Positions 43,466-60,042 of a stretch of 64,000 nt of DNA are shown here, one piece after another. The notes beneath the pieces are model-generated. The model saw only the letters and a list, made by a program, of their open reading frames with translations, did no database searches and was not told the origin of the DNA. The first letter of the stretch is position 1. Every line of letters starts with the position of its first letter. The position numbers and the translations under genes are program-made. The stretch is from Macrostomum lignano. Taxonomy: Eukaryota. The stretch spans positions 34,011 through 98,010 of the forward strand of contig NIVC01002893.1 in assembly GCA_002269645.1 (NCBI GenBank), read 5' to 3'.

Positions 43466-46400
43466 ATGGCATCTGCCGCTGTCGAACCGCTGCTTCCGCA
43501 GCAGCAGCAGCAGCAGCAACAACAACTACAGCTGGGCAACCTGGACAAGATGCTGGTGCACGTGTTGCGCTGTCCCCAGTGCACTTTTCTAACCCTGGCC
43601 CAGAAGCGGCTGCAGCAGCACATCGCCGAGGCGCATCCTGGCGAGCCAATATTCTACACTCTGCACACCTGCGCCGTTTGCAGCGCCGTCACCACGGAGA
43701 AGCACCTGATGGAGGAGCACAGGCTGCTTTATCACTGCGGCGAAACTGAAGACTCCCTGCTGCTCACCGCTCTGCCTGCGGTTGTAGACGGAACTGAAAG
43801 TCACGCCAACGCTGCCGCCGTCTCCGCTGCCGTCTCCGCTGCCGTCTCGGCCGCTGCAACCTCCCTCGCTGGCTCCATCGAGTCCAAGGTAACCGGAGCA
43901 CTGTAGCTTAACTAAGAATAAGCTAGATTGCGTAAGCATGCTTATGTGCCTACTTAATTAGTAGCATCGTTAGAACCTAGCGCTATGTTGTGTATTTAAA
44001 TTCTCTATTTAGCTAATTTAGCCCGCTACCCCAATAAAGGGCCACCCACCACCCCAATATAGAACTACCCGCCACCGTAATATAGAGTTACTCACCACCC
44101 CAACGCCACCCTAATATAGGGCTACCCAACAACCCAATATAGGGCTACCCAACAACCCAATATAGGGCTTACCTCCACCCCAATATTGATTTACCCGCCA
44201 CCCCAATATAGGGCTATCCGCCACCCCAATATAGGGCCACCCGCCACCCCAATATAGGGCCACCCGCAACCCCAATATAGGGCTATCCACCATCCCAATA
44301 AAGGGCTACCCACCATCCCAATAAAGGGCTACCCACCACCCCAACATAGGGCTACCCAACAACCCAATATAGGGCTTACCTCCACCCCAATATTGATTTA
44401 CCCGCCACCCCAATATAGGGCTACCCGCCACCCCAATATAGAGCCACCCGCCAACCCAATATAGAGCCACCCGCCACCCCAATATAGGGCCACCCGCCGC
44501 CCCAATATAGGGCTACCCGCCATCCCAATAAAGGGCTACCCACCATCCTAATATAGGGCTACCCGCCACCGCAATATAGGGCCACCCGCCACCCCAATAT
44601 AGGGCCACCCGCCACCCCAATATAGGGCTACACACCACCCCATTATAGAGTTACTCACCACCCCAATATACAATATAGGCCACCGCCACCCTAATATAGG
44701 GCTACCCAACAACCCAAAATAGGGCTACCCACCACCCCAATATTGGTTTATCCGCCACTCCAATATAGGGCTACCCGCCACCCCAATATAGAGCCACCCG
44801 CCACCCCAATATAGGGCCACCCGCAACCCCAATATAGGGCTATCCACCATCCCAATAAAGGGCTACCCACCATCCCAATAAAGGGCTACCCACCACCCCA
44901 ATATAGGGCTACCCGCCACCCCAATATAGGGCCACCCGCAACCCCAATATAGGGCTATCCACCATCCCAATAAAGGGCTACCCACCATCCCAATAAAGGG
45001 CTACCCACCACCCCAATATAGGGCTACCCGCCACCCCAATATAGGGCTACCCACCACCCCATTATAGAGTTACCCACCACCCCAATATACAATATAGGCC
45101 ACCGCCACCCTAATATAGGGCTACCCAACAACCCAATATAGGGCTACCCGCCACCCCAATATAGGGCCACCCGCCACCCCAATATAGGGCCACCCGCCAC
45201 CCCAATATAGGGCCACCCGCAACCCCAATATAGGGCTATCCACCATCCCAATAAAGGGCTACCCACCATCCCAATAAAGGGCTACCCACCACCCCATTAT
45301 AGAGTTACTCACCACCCCAATATACAATAGAGGCCACCGCCACCCTAATATAGGGCTACCCAACAACCCAATATAGGGCTACCCACCACCCCAATATTGG
45401 TTTATCCGCCACTCCAATATAGGGCTACCCACCACCCCAATATAGGGCTACCCACCACCCCAATATAGGGCTACCCGCCACCCCAATATAGAGCCACCCG
45501 CCACCAAAGTATAGGGCTACTCGATACCTTAACCAACCTATGCACCATTACGTATTACAGATCGCAATGGACTCCGTACTGCTTGGCAACCTGTCCTCAA
45601 TGCTTGAGAGCGGCAGTCACGGGCCTATTGCCGCAATTCCTAACCAGCCCGTATTCCCTACTGAGTACATTACCGCAATGCCGGTTGCCTCTACCGCTGC
45701 CAGATCGCCAGCCGCCAGTTACCCCAACGGTCTCCATGGCAACAATAATAACAATAACAACAGTACCCATAGCAACTATAATAAACGCCGTTGCCAACGC
45801 GGTATCCAACAGCGCCAGGTTGCTCGGGCTGCCGCTTTCCTGGGCGTCGATGCCGTTGCGCCACTTATCGGCCGTCAGTCCCAGACTCCCAATCAGCATC
45901 ATCACCAAAAGCAGCAGCAGCAGCATACTCTACCGCCAAATGGCGTCGAATTAATGGAAGACGAGGCCTACCTTGGCGAGGACAGCGCCAAGCCCTGGCT
46001 GTGCAGAGTTTGCAGCACCTGTTTTCCGCATCAGGCCAGCCTGAGGCGGCACATGAAGTTGCACGACACTAATAAAAGATTCAAGTGCGACAAGTGTCAT
46101 AAGCGATTCTCTTATCGGTGAGTTTTTGCCCCGGCTGTTGGACAAAACGCCCCCTTTATTTGTTCAATGTGATTTTTAAGCCGCTTCACAGCCGCTAATA
46201 CTCAAAATCTCACCCTGAGAATAAGTCTCAATCTCACCCTTAGAATCGCCTCACAATCTCACCTTGAGAATCCCCTCACAATCTCACAACAAGAATCGCC
46301 TCATAATCTCACCTTGTGAATCGCCTCACAATCTCACCTGAGAATAGTCTCACAATCTCACCTGAGAATAGCCTCACAATCTCACCCTGAGAATCCCCTC

Positions 46401-47593
46401 ACAATCTCACCCTGAGAATCCCCTCACAATCTCACCCTTAAAATCGCCTCACAATCTCACCCTTAAAATCGCCTCACAATCTCACCCTTAAAATCGCCTC
46501 ACAATCTCACACCAAGAATTGCCTCATAATCTCACCTTGAGAATCGCCTCACAATCTCACCTGAGAATAGTCTCACAATCTCACCTGAGAATAGTCTCAC
46601 AATCTCACCTGAGAATAGTATCACAACCTCACCCTGAGGATCGCCTCATCGTCATAATCTCACCCTGAGATTCGCCTCAAAATCTCACCCTGAGAATCGC
46701 CTCACAACCTCACCCTGAGAATCGCCTCACAACCTCACCCTGAGAATAGTCTCACAATCTCACCCAGAGAATCGCCTCACAATCTCACCTGAGAATCGTC
46801 TCATAATGTCACCCCAAGAATCGCCTTATAATCTCACCATGAGAATGCCTTAGAATCTCATCCTGAGAATAGTATCACAAAACCTCACCCTGAGGATCGC
46901 CTCATCGTCACAATCTCACCCTGGGATTCGCTTCAAAATCTTAACCTGAGAATCGCCTCACAACCTCACCCTGAGATTCGCCTCACAATCTCACCCTGAG
47001 AAGTGAGAATAGTCACATAACCCCACCCTGAAGATCAATCGCATGTTGGCCTCAAACCGACTTAAATCGCGTCCCCTAATTCGTCCCGCAGCTGCAACCT
47101 GATGCTGCACTACCGCACCCACACTAACGAGCGCCCGTTTCACTGTGTAACCTGCGGCGCCCGTTTCAACCAGCGAGTCCATCTGCAGAATCACATTCAG
47201 AATGTGCACAGCGGACCCGGCGGCGTGAGGCCAGCCGTTACTCACGAGTGCGACATCTGCGGCGCCTGGTTCGTGCAGATCAACGCCCTGACTCGGCACC
47301 AGCGACTGCATCACGACGAGGCTGCTGGCACCGTTGCTAAACGACATTCAAACGATTCTTTGAAGCACGAACCCCAGCTGCCGGAGTCTGATGATCGCAA
47401 TGGGGATCACGATAATCGGGATTTGCCGCCTCCACAGCTGGAGGCGTCGAATGTGCCAGATGACCAGCTTGAGCAGCCGGTCGATTCGAAGAACGCCGAA
47501 GCGCCTCGCTTGTCCGAGATGGAGACGTCTGAGAGTGCCGTTATTGGCGAAGTTTGCGCCGAAGCGTTGGAACAGGCAAACGGTCCGGAGTGA
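43466..47593 (+). CDS. C2H2 zinc-finger protein (~493 aa, 6 fingers, poly-Q/N tracts)
   Basis: Exons 43466-43888, 45561-46117 and 47092-47593 are phase-consistent (K|I; CG|C gives R). Fingers: CPQC..HIAEAH, CAVC..HRLLYH, CRVC..HMKLH, CDKC..HYRTH with a TNERPF linker, CVTC..HIQNVH, CDIC..HQRLH. Confidence 0.92.
44030..45510. repeat. 23-bp minisatellite (CCCAATATAGGGCTACCCGCCAC)n in zinc-finger intron 1
   Basis: About 60 units. The core CCAATATAGG fits CC(A/T)6GG. Confidence 0.97.
46205..47000. repeat. 25-bp minisatellite (TCACAATCTCACCCTGAGAATCGCC)n in zinc-finger intron 2
   Basis: About 30 diverged units with the internal palindrome TCTCA-CCC-TGAGA. Confidence 0.95.
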
Positions 47594-49511: not shown

Positions 49512-52500
49512 ATGAGTAGTCTAGTCAGATGTTTTTCGCGCATTTTATTTTGCATGCCTATCCTACGCGTTATCCGCGAGAACCCGAAGAAGTGCGCGGC
49601 CGGCGCCCTAGCGGCTGGGTGGCTGGCCAACTGGCTCTACACACGGCAGGCGGAGCGAGCCGAACTTCGCCAGCATTGTCGATGGGCGAAGGCGTTCGGC
49701 GATGCGCCCGTCAGCGGCCAGTGGCAGCAGACGGGCCAGCGTAGGCCGCAGTCACAGCAGCAACAGCAGCCGCGTCGGGTTACAGTGCTGTTTAATCCTA
49801 GGGCAGCTCAGAGCGCCTGGTTTGAGAAGGCTCTGTCGCCTATGCTGCATTTGGCTGGCTTTGAGGTTGGACTTTCATCTCTGGAGTTGGAGGGCTGGGA
49901 TCTCTGGAGTTGGAGGACTGGGATCTCTGGGGTTGGAGGGCTGGGATCTCTGGGGTTGGAGGACTGGGATCTCTGGAGTTGGAGGACTGGGATCTTTGGG
50001 GTTGGGTAGGCTGGGATCTTTGGGGTTGGGTAGGCTGAAATCTCTGGGGTTGGAGGGCTGGGATCTCTCGTATTGGAGGACTGGGATCTCTGGTGTTGAA
50101 GGGCTGGGATCTCTGGTTTTGGAGGGCTGGGATCTTTGGTGTTCGAGGGATGAGATCTCTGGGGTTGGAGGGCTGGGATCTTTGGAGTGGGTAGGCTGGG
50201 ATCTCTGGGGTTGGAGACTGGGATCTCTGGAGTTGGAGGACTGGGATCTTTGGGGTTGGGTAGGCTGGGATCTTTGGGGTTGGGTAGGCTGGGATCTTTG
50301 GGGTTGGGTAGGCTGAAATCTCTGGGGTTGGAGGGCTGGGATCTCTGGTGTTGAAGGGCTGGGATCTCTGGTTTTGGAGGGCTGGGATCTCTGGTTTTCG
50401 AGGGATGAGATCTCTGGGGTTGGAGGGCTGGGATCTTTGGAGTGGGTAGGCTGGGATCTCTGCGGTTGGAGGGCTGGCATCTCTTGGGGTTGGAGGGCAG
50501 GGATCTCTGGGGTTGGGTAGGCTGGGATCTCTGGGGTTGGAGGGCTGGGATCTCTTGGGTTGGGTAGGCTGGGATCTCTTGGGTTGGGTAGGCTGGGATC
50601 TCTTGGGTTGGTTAGGCTGGGATCTCTTGGGTTGGGTAGGCTGGGATCTCTTGGGGTTGGAGAGCTGAGATCTCTTGGGTTGGGTAGGCTGGTATCTCTT
50701 GGGGTTGGAGAGCTGAGATCTCTTGGGTTAAGTAGGCTGAGATCTCTGGTGTTGGAGGGCTGGGATCTCTTGGGTTGGGTAGGCTGAGATCTCTTGGGTT
50801 GGGTAAGCTGGGATCTCTGGTGTTGGAGGGCTGGGATCTCTTGGGTTGGAGGGCTGGGATCTCTGCGGTTGGGTAGGCTGGGAGCTCTTGGGTTAGCGGT
50901 CTGATATCTAAAGTTTTGGACTTTTAATTTCCATTAAGGAATTCCAGGTCTGTAATAGTATAATTTCCTAGATATCTAAGGTGCGGGTTCAAATTTTCTG
51001 AAAAGGCCGCAGAGGTTCAAATTTGCTAGAAACTAAGAAATGATTCCAATTTCCTAGAAATTTAGTATTTTTTCTTGGAAAGCTCGAAGTTCTAATTTCC
51101 TAGAAACCAAGAGCTTCCAATTTCGTGGAAAATTGGGTGGGGGTTCCCATTTCCTAGAAAGTTAAAGATTTCAGTTTCCTAGAAACTCAGAGATTCCAAT
51201 TTCCTAGAAACTCAAACATTCTAATTTCCTACAAACTTAGAGATTCCAATTTCCCGGAAACTCAAAGATTCCAATTTCCTGGAAACTCAAAGATTCCAAT
51301 TTCCTGGAAACTCAAAGATTCCAATTTCCTGGAAACTCAAAGATTCCAATTTCCTGGAAACTCGAAGTTCTAATTTCCTAGAAACCAAGAGCTTCCAATT
51401 TCGTGGAAAATGGGGTTGGGGTTCCCATTTCCTAGAAAGTTAAAGATTTCAGTTTCCTAGAAACTCAGAGATTCCAATTTCCTAGAAACTCAAACATTCC
51501 AATTTCCTAGAAACTTATAGATTCCAATTTCCTGGAAACTCAAAGATTCCAATTTCCTGGAAACTCAAAGATTCCAATTTCCTGGAAACTCAAAGATTCC
51601 AATTTCCTGGAAACTTGGGGTAAAAACATTGCGATCTATTGAAAATCTCCTAATCAGAATTCCTTAATCCGTGCTCCATCATTCACTTGTCGTCTGCCTG
51701 CTGCAGGTGCAACTAGTTGAAGGCGACGCGGAGGACGAGAACAAAGGCTTCATGGAGGTGCTGGACCTCAACAGCACTGACGCTGTGCTGGTTGCAGGCG
51801 GCGATGGCACCCTGATGCAGGCGGTCACGGGTCTGCTCCGCCGGCCAGACTCTCGCCGAATTGCCGCTCGCCTGCCGGTTGCCGCCGCTCCGCTTGGCCG
51901 GCGCAGCGATTCGACGTCGACAGTGTCGACTGGCGTTGGCGGCGGCGCAAGTCCCGCCGAAGGCCTGCCGGAGGCTTGCCGGCGGACTGTGGAAGCCCTG
52001 CTGCAGGCGACTTCCGCAAATTTCAATAATACTGCAACAACTACTAAGCGAATAGCTGCTGTTCGACCCATGCGAGTTCGAGTCAGACTAGGGGGCGATT
52101 CTGAGCTGCCGAGGGACACCTACTGCCTGACCGCGCTCGAGTGGTGCGTTTTGGCCATATTTATTGCATATGCAGCGTATTAAGATTCCTACACTCGTAG
52201 ATAAGAGGTTAAAAATTGGAATTTGAGAATGGGAATTCAGATATTGGGATTTGAGAATGGGGATTTGGATATTGGCATTTGAGAATGGGGATTTGGATAT
52301 TGGCATTTGAGAATGGGGATTTGGATATTGGGATTCGATAATGGGGATTTGGATATTGGGATTTGATAATGGGGATTTAGATATTGTGATTTTAGAATTA
52401 GAATTCGGTTATTGGGATTTGAGAATGGGGATTTGGATATTGGGATTTAAGAATGGGGGATCTGATATTGGGATTTCAGAATGGAGATTTGGATATTGGC

Positions 52501-55500
52501 ATCTGAGAATGGGGAATCGGATATTGGGATTTAAGAATTGGGATTTTAATTTTTTGTGATTTTAGAATGGGATTCAGATATTAAGATATTAAAATGGGGA
52601 ATCGGATTTTGGGATTTGGAAATGAGGATTCGGATATTGGGATTTCAGAATGGGGATTCGGATATTGGGATTTGAGCTTAGAGATTCGGATATTGGGATT
52701 TGAGCTTGGAGATTGGGATATTGGGATTTGAGCTTGGGGATTCGGATATTGGGATTTGAGCTTGGAGATTCGGATATTGGGATTTGAGCTTGGAGATTCG
52801 GATATTGGGATTTGTGCTTGGAGATTCGGATATTGGGATTTGAGCTTGGAGATTCGGATATTGGGATTTGAGCTTGGAGATTCGGAAATTGGGATTTGAG
52901 CTTGGAGATTCGGATATTGGGATTTGAGCTTGGAGATTCGGATATTGGGATTTTACAATGGGAACTGAAAGATGGACAATTATTGGTACGAGCGTATTAG
53001 GAGTTTTGGATTTAAAAATAAATAAGGATTTGTACACTGTGGATTAACTCAATGGCAGGTCCAGTCTTAGACAGCGCGAGCGCGCCACCGAAGCCTCGGC
53101 CATTCGGCGCAACCTGCCTACAGTGGCGCAGCGCTGTCTGCACTGGCTGGCCGAGACCGCCTCGCCTTCGGCCGCTGCCGCCGTCCCAGTCGGCTGCGTC
53201 ATTGACTGGACGCCGGCTTGTCCCGGTTGCGCCCGCTGCGTGGCTCCCGCCCCGGCACGCAGTCTGAGCAGCCGCCTGCTCAGCGTCAGCCAGCGACCCT
53301 CGCCAGCACAGCAGCAGCAGCAGCTGGCGACCGCCTCCGTCAACCCCGACTGCGGCCAGTGGCGTCAACTGGAAGTACCGGCGACTTTGGGGATTCGTCT
53401 AAGCCCAACGCCTACCGGCACTGCCGGGGGCGTACTGCTGCAGGTTGGCGTTGCGGGCTGCGGTTTGGGGATCTGGGATATTGGGTCCGTTATTGTCCAG
53501 AAACTGGCATTTTTAATTTAGGATTTGGGATTTAGGATTTCAGATCTAGGACCTGGGATCTAGGATCTGGGATCTAGGATCTGGGATCTAGGATCTGGGA
53601 TCTAGGATCTGGGATCTAGGATCTGGGATCTAGGATCTGGGATCTAGGATCTGGGATCTAGGATCTGGGATCTAGGATCTGGGATCTAGGATCTGGGATC
53701 TAGGATCTGGGATCTAGGATCTGGGATCTAGGATCTGGGATCTAGGATCTGGGATCTAGGATCTGGGATCTAGGATCTGGGATCTAGGATCTGGGATCTA
53801 GGATCTGGGATCTAGGATCTGGGATCTAGGATCTGGGATCTAGGATCTGGGATCTAGGATCTGGGATCTAGGATCTGGGATCTAGGATCTGGGATCTAGG
53901 ATCTGGGATCTAGGATCTGGGATCTAGGATCTGGGATCTAGGATCTGGGATCTAGGATCTGGATCTAGGATCTGGGATCTAGGATCTGGGATCTAGGATC
54001 TGGGATCTAGGATCTGGGATCTAGGATCTGGGATCTAGGATCTGGGATCTAGGATCTGGGATCTAGGATCTGGGATCTAGGATCTGGGATCTAGGATCTG
54101 GGATCTAGGATCTGGGATCTAGGATCTGGGATCTAGGATCTGGGATCTAGGATCTGGGATCTAGGATCTGGGATCTAGGATCTGGGATCTAGGATCTGGG
54201 ATCTAGGATCTGGGATCTAGGATCTGGGATCTAGGATCTGGGATCTAGGATCTGGGATCTAGGATCTGGGATCTAGGATCTGGGATCTAGGATCTGGGAT
54301 CTAGGATCTGGGATCTAGGATCTGGGATCTAGGATCTGGGGATCTAGGATCTGGATCTAGGATCTAGGATCTAGGATCTGGGATCTAGGATCTAGGATCT
54401 GGGATCTAGGATCTGGGATCTGGGATCTAGGATCTAGGATCTGGGATCTAGGATCTAGGATCTGGGATCTAGGATCTAGGATCTGGGATCTGGGATCTAG
54501 GATCTGGGATCTAGGATCTAGGATCTGGGATCTAGGATCTGGGATCTAGGATCTGGGATCTAGGATCTAGGATCTGGGATCTGGGATCTAGGATCTGGGA
54601 TCTAGGATCTGGGATCTAGGATCTGGATCTAGGATCTGGATCTATCTAGGATCTAGGATCTAGGATCTAGGATCTAGGAGTAGTAATAGAAAATTACGTC
54701 CATACCTCACTTTTCAATTGCAAAACACGTAATAAGGTACCCGTCAGAAATTTTATTACGCACATACCCTATTTTTCTGTTAAAAATCAAGTAGTAAGGT
54801 ACCGAACCAAAGGGTAGGGTATTCTACAGGAATTGTAACTACACTGCACCGCACCCACAAAGAATCCAAAAGAAGAAAAGATCTCAATTTCGATCAACCA
54901 ACCAACCAACTTGTCCAAAAACGCACTTTCGGTATATTTCTGCATTACAAGAACAGAGGCAACACATGTGCTGCAAAGCGTCGTAGGCAAAAATACGTGC
55001 GCCGAAATTCATTTCCTTCGACGAGACCCACAACCAAGAATACGCGTTAAAAAGAATCGAAGGCCACCACCACCAGTCAGTTTGAAATACAAATAAAACA
55101 ACACCCAAATACCACAATGACCAGTCCGAGGATCCTGAATAGCAAATCGGCTGTAGGACCAATTTTGAAAATCCCCACATTCTCGCCTCAACCACCGTCT
55201 AATATTTTCCGATGGATTTAAACCAAGCGTATCAAAATATTCCCCGACTCTTCGTCCACGGCGCCCCCTAACCCGCCTGCTACTCACCCAAACTACAACC
55301 CAATGCCTACCAGGAAGATTCGAAGTGTCTGTATTCGCCACAAAGAAATAGTCTTTATCATCTAAAGGTTGCAGCTGCCGCCAACGCGAAACCCTCTGCT
55401 GACTAGGTAGAACGAACCCCCCTTCTCGCTCCCTTTACGTTGGTGGCTCCCAACTCGATCCACCCCTTCCTCTCAACCAACCCTGACCCTCCCTAATCCA

Positions 55501-57194
55501 CCACATGAGATCTCAGTCGTCCCTATGAGTAATTTTGCTGAATATAAGATCCTACCGACAGCAGTCCGGAAAATTTTCTAGTCTTGTCTAAACGCATTCA
55601 CTCACTACCAATATGGACAAATCCGCGCAAAAGAAGGAACTAGCTGAGCGATATGTGAGAGATGGTAAGCATTGGGCTTTTTGTTTATTCAGAGGCTAAT
55701 GAGGTAGTAATGGGCTGCGTCTTCTCTCTTTGCAGCGTTCAAGAACGGGGTCTTTGCGCGGCCGCCGCCGGGATATATATGTACCCGAGCATGTCACGGC
55801 TTGCGAAGGTAAATACGCCCTGGCTGTACAAGCCCTAGGTGCTGGCTGCTTCCGTTTCTTCTTCAGGGAGAAGGAGTCGGGAAGAGTCACTACGGTTGAC
55901 TACTGCGATTTGACTGCGGACGCCTGACTGTGCAATGGAACGAAGCTCGTAAATAATTTGGTATTATTAGTATTGTAATTATTTATCCACTATTCGTTAG
56001 GGAATTTTAAAGTTATTTAAAAGACTGTCAAATCGCATTTTTGCGTTCATTTGCATCAAGAAATTAACGTCATGAATTAACTAATCGTGTATCTCATCTG
56101 TTAAAATATATAGACATGTCAACTTGATTCGACCGAAAGACTGTTTCTTACTACGATGGTTCAGTTTATTATTGTGCATGGCCGTCAGTACCGAACTCAG
56201 GCGGATCTTGTCACAGCAACACTTACAATTACCTGGTTTTTTGGATTTGATCGGTTTCTCGATCGGTGACTGAGAGTTAAAAACTGCATATTTCTTTTGG
56301 CGTATTATATTTTAGTCAAGTTGTATTCAAGTATACTTAGTTTCGTAAGTCTCAATGGTCTTTTCTCGAAAATGAAAAAATTGGGGTCTTGAATGACTCC
56401 TGTTACAAAAAAGCTGGGCGCAGCACGTGGCTTATTTACTGCCTGTGTCCTGTTCTGAGCTGGGTTTTGCTTGCAGAGGGATTGTGGCACAATTTTGACT
56501 TCTGCAATTTATTAAGATCTTTTCTTTTGTTCTTTGTGGGTGTGTGTTTCCTCTATTCTTGTAATGCAGAAATAGCTGTCGTTTTTCAGCAACTTGGTTG
56601 ATTGGTGTTGTTGGGGTCTTTTCTTTCTCGTTCTTTGTGGGTGCGGTGCAGTGTAGTTACAATTCCTGTAGAATACCCTACCATTTGGTTCGGTACCTTA
56701 CTACTTGATTTTTAATACAAAAATAAGGTATGTGCGTAATAAAATTTCTGACGGGTACCTTATTACGTGTTTTGCAATTGAAAAGTGAGGTATGGACGTA
56801 ATTTTCTATTACTACTTCTAGGGACTGTGATCTGGGATATCAGAAGCGAAGGCTGCCCGCAACATTTCATTGCCAGGTGCTCCCAGCTCGCCTATCAGGC
56901 GGCCAGCTGTGGCGGGCCATCGGCACCAGACTGTCTGGTGGCGACTCTTCCACTGCCGCAGCTCGAATCGATCAGTTCTACACTGACTGCTCTGAGACTC
57001 AACTACTGGCTGGCGGCGTCTCTGTCCGCCTGTTGCGCAACAATGAGGCCGCCGCGTCGGCCCAGCAGCCTACGCCGGAAGAGCTGGAGAAGCAAAAGAA
57101 AAAAGAGACGCCTTATTTTCTTGATAACGAACTGTTTGACCCGGTGGACGTTCAGGTCAGCCTTAGCGAGGTGCCGCTGCTGCTGTGCGCTTGA
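49512..57194 (+). CDS. AGK: acylglycerol kinase (mitochondrial lipid kinase / TIM22 subunit), ~497 aa, 4 exons
   Basis: Exons 49512-49865, 51707-52143, 53059-53443 and 56877-57194 are phase-consistent. Motifs: RENPKK.AAG...W...W (N-terminal anchor), RVTVLFNP.A, FEK...P.LHLAG, VLVAGGDGT...VTGLLRR, PLG, CPGCARC, NPDCGQW, YFLDNELFDP.DVQV.L. Confidence 0.92.
49866..50900. repeat. ~23-bp G-rich minisatellite (GGTTGGAGGGCTGGGATCTCTGG)n in AGK intron 1
   Basis: Directly visible. It starts at the GAG|GTTGGA donor. Confidence 0.95.
51030..51615. repeat. 25-bp minisatellite (AGATTCCAATTTCCTGGAAACTCAA)n with a ~280-bp higher-order duplication
   Basis: Units contain TTCCTGGAA/TTCCTAGAA. The block starting CTCGAAGTTCTAATTTCC occurs at about 51083 and 51361. 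Confidence 0.92.
52215..52955. repeat. 28-bp minisatellite (GGATATTGGGATTTGAGCTTGGAGATTC)n in AGK intron 2
   Basis: Directly visible, with two sub-variants. Confidence 0.94.
53530..54678. repeat. 14-bp minisatellite (GGATCTAGGATCTG)n in AGK intron 3
   Basis: About 80 units. The array is homogeneous at first and degenerates toward the element insertion. Confidence 0.98.
55009..55341 (-). CDS. adenain/Polinton-type cysteine protease (PRO); 5' part out of frame, possibly a pseudogene
   Basis: VANTDTSNLPGRHWVVVW...GEYFDTLG...AIQDPRTGHCGIWVLFYL matches the Polinton PRO pattern NTD...PG.HW...EYFDS.G...Q...CG.YC..YL. H, D, Q and C are all present. The upstream sequence needs a 1-nt frameshift near 55345. 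Confidence 0.8.
   Translation of the reverse strand: MANTDTSNLPGRHWVVVWVSSRRVRGRRGRRVGEYFDTLGLNPSENIRRWLRRECGDFQNWSYSRFAIQDPRTGHCGIWVLFYLYFKLTGGGGLRFFLTRILGCGSRRRK
55613..55927 (+). CDS. three-exon microgene, 61-aa basic protein of unknown function
   Basis: Exons 55613-55664, 55736-55808 and 55867-55927. Introns are 71 nt (G|GTAAGC...CTAAT...CTTCTCTCTTTGCAG) and 58 nt (AG|GTAAAT...TTCCGTTTCTTCTTCAG). Product: MDKSAQKKELAERYVRDAFKNGVFARPPPGYICTRACHGLRREKESGRVTTVDYCDLTADA. TATAAG at about 55543. Confidence 0.65.
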
Positions 57195-58384: not shown

Positions 58385-60042
58385 ATGATGCTCTTATTGA
58401 CTGCCGCCCATCGCGAGGCTGAGGCCGCCCGCTGGCTTGGTCACGTGCGCGCTGGCCGCCTCTCAGCCGTGGCGCGCAGCCTCGGCGCCGGCGATCTCGG
58501 CGTCGACACGCGCGCCGGCCCAAACGGCAACACCGGCCTGCACGAGGCCTGCGCAGCCGGTTGCTTCGAGGTTGCCGCCTTTCTGATTGGCCGTGGCGCC
58601 AAGTTGGACGCCGCTAACGATTGGGGCTCCACGCCGCTGCACATGGCAGTGGGATCGGGACATCTGGCACTAGTGCGCTTGCTGATTGAGCGGGGCGCCT
58701 GTCTGGATCGGGCGGACAGGTGAGGCTTGAGGTGGTGGGCAGGTGAGGCTTGAGGTGGTGGGCAGGTGAGGCTTGAGGTGGTGGGCAGGTGAGGCTTGAG
58801 GTGGTGGGCATGTGAGGCTTGAGGTGGTGGGCATGTGAGGCTTGAGGTGGTGGGCAGGTGAGGCTTGAGGTGGTGGGCAGGTGAGGCTTGAGGTGGTGGG
58901 CAGGTGAGGCTTGAGTTGGTGGGCAGGTGAGGCTTGAGGTGGTGGGCAGGTCAGGCTTGAGGTGGTGGGCAGGTGAGGCTTGAGGTGGTGGGCAGGTGAG
59001 GCTTGAGGTGGTGGGCAGGTGAGGCTTGAGGTGGTGGGCAGGTGAGGCTTGAGGTGGTGGGCAGGTGAGGCTTGAGGTGGTGGGCAGGTGAGGCTTGAGG
59101 TGGTGGGCAGGTGAGGCTTGAGGTGGTGGGCAGGTGAGGCTTGAGGTGGTGGGCAGGTGAGGCTTGAGGTGGTGGGCAGGTGAGGCTTGAGGTGGTGGGC
59201 AGGTGAGGCTTGAGGTGGTGGGCAGGTGAGGCTTGAGGTGGTGGGCTTAGGAGCGGACAGGTGAGGCCTAGGAGCGGACAGTGAGGCTTAGGAGCGGACA
59301 GGTGAGGCCTAGGAGCGGACAGGTGAGGCTTAGGAGCGGACAGGTGAGGCTTAGGGGCGGACAGGTGAGGCTTGGGGCAGGTCATTTGCCAAACCGGGCG
59401 ATTATTATTGATATTTCTAAGAAATGTTTTTGACGGCTAGAGTTTTTCAGTAAAAGTACATCACCAAAAAACTGCACAAAAAACCATACGGTCGTTAAAG
59501 AAATTGGATCAAAAGTGTTCTTTGCCACTGACAGCGGCAGTGTAAGCGTATTGATGGAATAATTTGTAGTGGGCTATAAAAACATGCCATAGCCCTTTCC
59601 TCCGCTGCTGGATTCCCACAGCCGGTTGGGCTCGCCGCTGCACTATGCGTCCGCGCACAACCAGCCGGAGGCGGCCATCCTGCTGGCCAGCGCCGGCGCC
59701 GATCTGGAGGCCCGCTGCCGCTGCCGCTGCGGTCCAGCCGCCGAAACGCCGCTGGCGGTTGCCTGCTCTCGCGGCCACTGCCGAGTTGCCGAAGTTCTGC
59801 TCGCTTTCGGCGCCGCTCCGCCTCGGCCGATGTCGACTGGCCAAGCGCCTCTGGCCGCGTGGACGGCCGCCACGGCTGCGGGGCAGCGGCCGGAGCAGCT
59901 GACTGCGTTGGCCAGGCGAGCCGTCTGGCGCCGACTGCGGCAGCTCGGCCCGACAGCGGCCAGGCAGACCGCTAATTGGCTGCCCTGCAGGCTGCGCGAC
60001 TTCCTCTGCCTGGGACTGCCGGCCTGGCCTTGGCCGGAGTAG
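58385..60042 (+). CDS. ankyrin repeat and SOCS box protein (ASB-like), ~251 aa, 2 exons
   Basis: Exons 58385-58719 and 59622-60042 join as AG|C = Ser. Four ankyrin repeats (GNTGLHEA, GSTPLHMA, GSPLHYA, ETPLAVA) and a C-terminal SOCS box PEQLTALARRAVWRRL...WLPCRLRDFL. The start codon is uncertain. Confidence 0.88.
58720..59380. repeat. 23-bp (GTGAGGCTTGAGGTGGTGGGCAG)n then 21-bp (GTGAGGCTTAGGAGCGGACAG)n, starting at the ASB splice donor
   Basis: Directly visible. Nearly every unit junction reads CAG|GTGAGG. Confidence 0.97.

Follow-up and report, generated by a model that had tools for sequence, protein, structure and literature searches.

The window, a 64,000-nucleotide stretch of Macrostomum lignano DNA, contains an internally deleted Polinton that carries a protease gene remnant on one strand and a small two-exon gene on the other. 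The element is identified as such because it has terminal inverted repeats (TIRs), the end motifs, a target-site duplication (TSD) and the protease remnant, and because its ends match those of a full-length element on contig C2529 of genome G000. The features of the locus are the following:

54673–54678: left copy of the 6-bp TSD, TCTAGG
54679–56816, no strand: internally deleted Polinton of 2138 nt with ends AGTAGT ... ACTACT; the end regions of the element match the full-length Polinton G000:C2529:17164-35936 at 96% and 93%
54679–54966: left TIR, ~288 nt, 89% identical to the right one
55009–55369, minus strand: 3′ part of the Polinton cysteine protease gene (Pfam Peptidase_C48, E = 0.0043; 96–97% DNA identity to full-length elements)
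55543–55548, plus strand: TATAAG, 70 nt before the ATG
55613–55664, plus strand: exon 1, 17 codons and 1 nt, basic, predicted helix
55665–55735, plus strand: intron 1, 71 nt, phase 1, real (contig joints in runs X2, X6 and X4; site common to other Polinton families; annotated protein P0003)
55736–55927, plus strand: true exon 2, the last exon, frameshifted in the window copy
55765–55776, plus strand: PPGY, a PPxY-type motif just before the frameshift
55776–55790, plus strand: frameshift region in a short AT repeat and a C run
55809–55866, plus strand: 58-nt segment (segment 2) proposed as 'intron 2', corresponding to 20 exon 2 codons; its splice-like signals are found in this insertion only
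56543–56816: right TIR
56817–56822: right copy of the TSD, TCTAGG

The (AGT)2//(ACT)2 ends and the 6-bp TSD are end features reported for Mavericks (PMC8097293). The window element thus shares with Polintons/Mavericks (Eupolintoviridae-like) the TIRs, both of these features and an adenain-type cysteine protease, the latter as a truncated remnant whose 5′ part is gone at the deletion breakpoint near 55369–55372. The longer protease ORF of a sister copy matches ASFV pS273R (E = 1e−4). In G000, full-length relatives encode pPolB, an rve integrase and an A32-like ATPase, whereas the 2.1-kb window copy lacks the polymerase, integrase, ATPase and putative capsid genes as well as the protease 5′ part. 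As pPolB and rve integrase are missing from it and present in the relatives on C889 and C2529, it does not qualify as autonomous. The C2529 element, which has the closest ends (93–96%), is rearranged at its far end with an inverted protease piece and is devoid of the small gene.

All five near-identical copies of the element have common flanks and therefore go back to a single insertion that host duplication has multiplied. G000 contains five copies of the host region with the element, on C2893 (in the window and at 110001–120000), C1907, C1729 and C642. One of the five is an inverted duplicate on the same contig as the window copy, at a distance of ~24 kb; an empty insertion site for this host region was not found in G000. 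A 2.8-kb deletion form (L008–L012) is a second single insertion, duplicated five times; its flanks and breakpoints are different, and its protease ORF is complete or almost so. Neither the 2.1-kb nor the 2.8-kb form was found at several independent sites, as would be expected of a mobile mini-Polinton; since each is a single insertion copied with its flanks, mobility of the deleted form is not supported.

In the host surroundings, a gene encoding a diacylglycerol-kinase catalytic domain (window 49512–57194; Pfam E = 3e−7 at 51752–52180), which we take to be acylglycerol-kinase-like, likely harbours the element in one of its late introns, where a GGATCT satellite ends. The host exon that follows the element has no Pfam or PDB match and presumably belongs to this upstream kinase-like gene. 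The database model P0005 fuses the kinase-domain gene to the small accessory gene. Host C2H2 zinc-finger exons are located at 43466–47593 and an ankyrin-repeat exon at 58385–58723 of the window, with minisatellite-filled introns.

The earlier note had read the small gene within this mini-Polinton as three exons encoding 61 amino acids. The TIR element surrounding the gene is confirmed, and the landmarks are all in the sequence: ATG at 55613, GT..AG segments at 55665–55735 (71 nt) and 55809–55866 (58 nt) in phases 1 and 2, a 61-codon frame to TGA at 55927 if both segments are removed, TATAAG at 55543–55548 and CTAAT in intron 1. Comparison of copies separates the two segments. Searching the genome at the DNA level yielded 29 matches, 17 of which span the gene; 12 of the 17 lie outside the window insertion and five are duplicates of it. 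The intron 1 acceptor is found in all 17 copies and its donor is GT in 15 and GC in two, while the intron tolerates indels of 4 and 15 nt among copies. The GC donors belong to L006 and L007, both otherwise open copies. For segment 2, the acceptor AG is present in none of the 12 outside copies and the donor GT in three; among the 17 spanning copies, both signals occur only in the five duplicates of this insertion, and the three-exon frame is kept in only two of these (the window and L005). The three-exon structure is thus not conserved.

Exon 2, read through segment 2, is under purifying selection. In eight of the 12 outside copies it stays open in frame across the segment and ends at the same stop; both exons are open from the ATG in five of the 12, and four are broken, at other places. 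Among six open copies, exon 2 has dN/dS of 0.13–0.28 in 14 of 15 pairs, which share ancestry and are not independent; in the exceptional pair, L013/L016, dN/dS is 3.2, and L016 is without exon 1. Variable columns by codon position number 14/12/33 over the whole exon and 8/3/11 in segment 2 alone, where the signal is weaker. The two-exon product has 80 residues, and exactly this two-exon join is found in the database entry PAA71600.1 (P0003; BOX15_Mlig002782g2), an 80-residue hypothetical protein of the same gene family, labelled Macrostomum lignano, a record possibly derived from this very genome. Its match is to an open sister copy, the window copy being frameshifted, and its database name has no link to Polintons. 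With intron 1 spliced and conserved and exon 2 under purifying selection, the locus has the properties of a two-exon accessory gene. We therefore conclude with very high confidence that the gene consists of two exons encoding 80 residues and that segment 2 is coding sequence, in place of the three exons and 61 residues proposed earlier.

In the window copy the two-exon reading ends after 42 residues at TAA 55810–55812. The net shift near 55776–55790 amounts to 1 nt in the window and L005 and 2 nt in L002–L004, L005 having further single-base losses at its contig end. In one contig comparison, none of the contig coverage at the frameshift site agreed with the window sequence. The database model that comes from this very locus, P0005, implies a longer run and treats segment 2 as coding. 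The shorter run of the window may be a true allele or else an error of assembly. The window copy is likely a dead, frameshifted copy of a two-exon Polinton accessory gene; gene structure and copy status taken jointly, this reading is highly probable. The C-x3-C-H and distal Cys noted earlier do not fit a conserved motif: C-x3-C-H is a product of the shifted frame and is missing from every open copy, six of ten aligned rows have Trp or Phe in place of the distal Cys, and no column has an invariant Cys or His. The argument that two compatible introns are unlikely to arise by chance fails, because with a real intron and a reading frame already there only one coincidence is needed. Nine GT..AG pairs of 40–120 nt in exon 2 would reopen the frame; the pair chosen earlier has the best-looking signals of the nine.

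Transcript evidence was sought in eight of 24 listed runs, compared as contigs only; seven were guessed to be RNA, and the label of every run is a guess. The intron 1 joint (55664/55736) occurs in contigs of three of the seven RNA-guess runs (X2, X6 and X4, from three studies), a fourth run, X1, has a loose end matching the joint, and in the unlabelled run X16 the joint was not found. All contigs spliced at intron 1 carry the sister-copy allele at 55663. Those from the 2.8-kb copies extend over 255 nt upstream, though these copies lack the TATA word: TATAAG or TATAAT is present in nine of the 17 copies and in none of the 2.8-kb ones, the source of the alleles seen in the spliced contigs. X3 and X4 contigs agree with L011/L012 alleles, and because these two copies are themselves frameshifted, splicing here is no proof of a protein. 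Window-type contigs retain intron 1 (X1 record 6, X3 record 19, X4 record 24), and such unspliced contigs could be host pre-mRNA or DNA. The first intron proposed in the earlier note is thus real, at a phase-1 site that recurs in other families. Of its suggestion of an expressed accessory gene of virus-like origin, the spliced Polinton-type gene stands, while the splicing is seen with sister-copy alleles and not with the window's own.

The second junction, 55808/55867, fared differently. Could segment 2 be a new intron made from coding sequence, in which a new acceptor and a stronger donor remove 58 nt, offset the frameshift and give a 61-residue protein? GTAAAT and TTCAG do occur together at the segment 2 sites in this lineage only, the phases fit in the window and L005, and minor splicing could escape notice because contigs drop rare forms. 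Yet the joint is absent from all eight runs (contigs only, in which rare forms can be lost), and a window-type contig (X2 record 22) bridges the segment unspliced with no other letters. The phases misfit in three of the five duplicates, and where they fit, this may reflect a rare allele or an error of assembly, given the differing contig depth and the longer run implied by P0005. Moreover, the 61-residue product would lack most of two predicted strands, and the change that created the acceptor is synonymous in the old frame. We consider a new intron very improbable; with the acceptor missing from the outside copies and the frame read through in eight of the 12, the second intron is not retained. 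Under the two-exon structure, a parental Polinton may have lost ~16 kb of its middle while keeping both ends, after which slippage in the short repeat would have put this insertion out of frame. The splice-like look of segment 2 would stem from two point changes in that lineage, and host duplication would have made the five copies.

Protein and pattern searches of the genome retrieved diverged homologues of the gene. An 18.9-kb Polinton, C889:26751-45674, encodes pPolB (E = 1.7e−21), rve integrase (2.8e−6) and an A32 ATPase (0.002), and its homologue of the small gene, 28–33% identical, sits ~1.3 kb inside the TIR at the end opposite the protease; the intron of this homologue occupies the phase-1 site of intron 1. 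Gene order and intron site are alike in the C84/C1136 family, which in addition has a long low-complexity insertion. Thus, the intron position and the motifs FKNGVF..PP and E[YF]WDL are common to Polinton families at 28–45% identity. Polinton genes also occur in every one of the 13 homologue-bearing regions examined, although some of them were fetched for their protease match. In full-length relatives, ORFs of 492 and 342 residues occupy the expected capsid places; they have no Pfam match, and labelling them major and minor capsid proteins would be by inference.

Several further observations concern these relatives. The C889 element (L078, L068, L069) has 130-nt TIRs, a 6-bp TSD and a deoxynucleoside kinase (Pfam dNK, E = 4.9e−19). 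It also contains an ORF with a weak match to TATA-binding protein (E = 2.6e−4), present in C2529, C272, C84, C1136 and C3805 as well; judged by their titles, none of the papers found in a literature search deals with such an ORF in Polintons. Copies at L093:905-1408 and on G000 contigs C84, C105, C219, C870, C1136, C2373, C3380 and C4966 have ~100 extra Ser/Thr/Pro/Gln-rich residues between the conserved ends. In this C84-type family, intron 1 is longer (266–378 nt) and four of eight copies end early. L058 has a second, diverged paralogue ~2.3 kb away.

Beyond this organism, no relative was detected among 1.84 billion representatives, a search of limited reach for so short a query. Pfam has no family for exon 2 or P0003, and word-indexed protein searches matched P0003 and P0005 only. 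A full HMMER scan gave 18 matches at E ≤ 0.001, two of them of this family. The other 16 were rejected, being long proteins with 3–17 short matching stretches each; the three that were checked are repeat proteins (PKD, fn3, other). Of 27 pattern matches in viral contigs, none was confirmed as a homologue. We found no paper on Polintons of this organism in a search whose reach excluded most subscription journals and Repbase.

The model of the 80-residue protein has a helix at residues 3–20, a low-confidence coil at 24–38 and four strands (pLDDT 62.6, pTM 0.50). Fold searches gave no match at E ≤ 0.001 in PDB and BFVD, a best Z of 5.7 in VIA, which is background level, and in the Atlas a best feature score of 0.86 with TM of 0.60–0.63 to small unnamed phage proteins, only a weak lead. 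No Pfam, structural or sequence relative supplies a function. A PPxY motif is present in ten of 12 open exon-2 frames (0.5–2.3% in shuffles of those ten), the ten positives representing only three lineages; it is doubled in two frames (C889 and C272) and missing in two of the 12, one paralogue and the whole C84/C1136 family.

PPxY motifs bind WW domains. Based on this known affinity, on the position of PPGY in the predicted coil (residues 24–38, pLDDT under 50) and on a parallel with adenovirus protein VI, the protein may serve as a small adaptor of helix-plus-sheet fold for host proteins with WW domains, a tentative prediction to which we assign a low probability. The PPxY of adenovirus protein VI is reported to recruit Nedd4 ligases (PMC2841620), and the two proteins, from related classes of DNA elements, have this short motif in common. 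No sequence or fold similarity between them was found, however, and the likeness is limited to four residues.

A structural or DNA-binding role, for example that of a minor virion or core protein in which PPPGY is only a proline-rich turn, is as likely as the adaptor and hence also no more than possible. In line with such a role are the basic N-terminal helix, the position fixed across families, the invariant residues N, V, F, P, P, D and L, which are kept even where PPxY is lost, and the small phage proteins among the weak fold look-alikes (TM 0.60–0.63). On the other hand, in full-length Polintons the gene lies outside the capsid-protease block and on the opposite strand, and the C84 family tolerates ~100 inserted low-complexity residues. 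The gene also has an intron, whereas the core genes of intact vertebrate Mavericks are reported to be intronless (PMC8097293); the small accessory gene of our elements differs from them in its conserved intron.

Introns in accessory genes of such elements have precedents. Nematode Mavericks are reported to have intron-bearing cargo genes (wasp proteases and krma kinases) in a variable region beside the TIR (10.1101/2022.07.12.499685), dinoflagellate elements contain introners (PMC12166617), and it is common for such elements to have accessory genes (PMC8502044, PMC5718144). The spliceosomal intron and the place beside the TIR, shared with the nematode cargo region (10.1101/2022.07.12.499685), could suggest that our gene, too, is a host gene captured as cargo, as the earlier note had allowed. 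We regard this as improbable, and less likely than either of the two roles above: no host copy was found, the 13 of 13 homologue regions also hold Polinton genes, and no relative outside this organism is known from the 1.84 billion representatives searched. Furthermore, nematode cargo is described as larger enzymes with ubiquitin-like domains, moved between species (10.1101/2022.07.12.499685), unlike the gene here, an 80-residue orphan without an enzyme fold or known host donor. An old capture whose donor was lost or has diverged too far is possible.

The three-exon model is best seen as an artefact of the frameshift, and the window gene, itself a broken copy, is of little import. The case exemplifies how a frameshift and chance splice-like words can mimic an extra intron, so that comparison of copies is needed. 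As a modestly useful side result, an annotated orphan protein is now tied to Polintons, and its intron has been kept at one position across Polinton families at 28–45% identity. By analogy with adenovirus protein VI, the Polintons of this organism might carry an old, spliced, element-specific 80-residue protein that recruits host proteins with WW domains, of the Nedd4 type or others, through its PPxY loop; we hold this fuller proposal to be doubtful, but the PPxY motif makes it testable. If true, it would place a host-interaction gene with an intron in a virus-like element whose known core genes are intronless.
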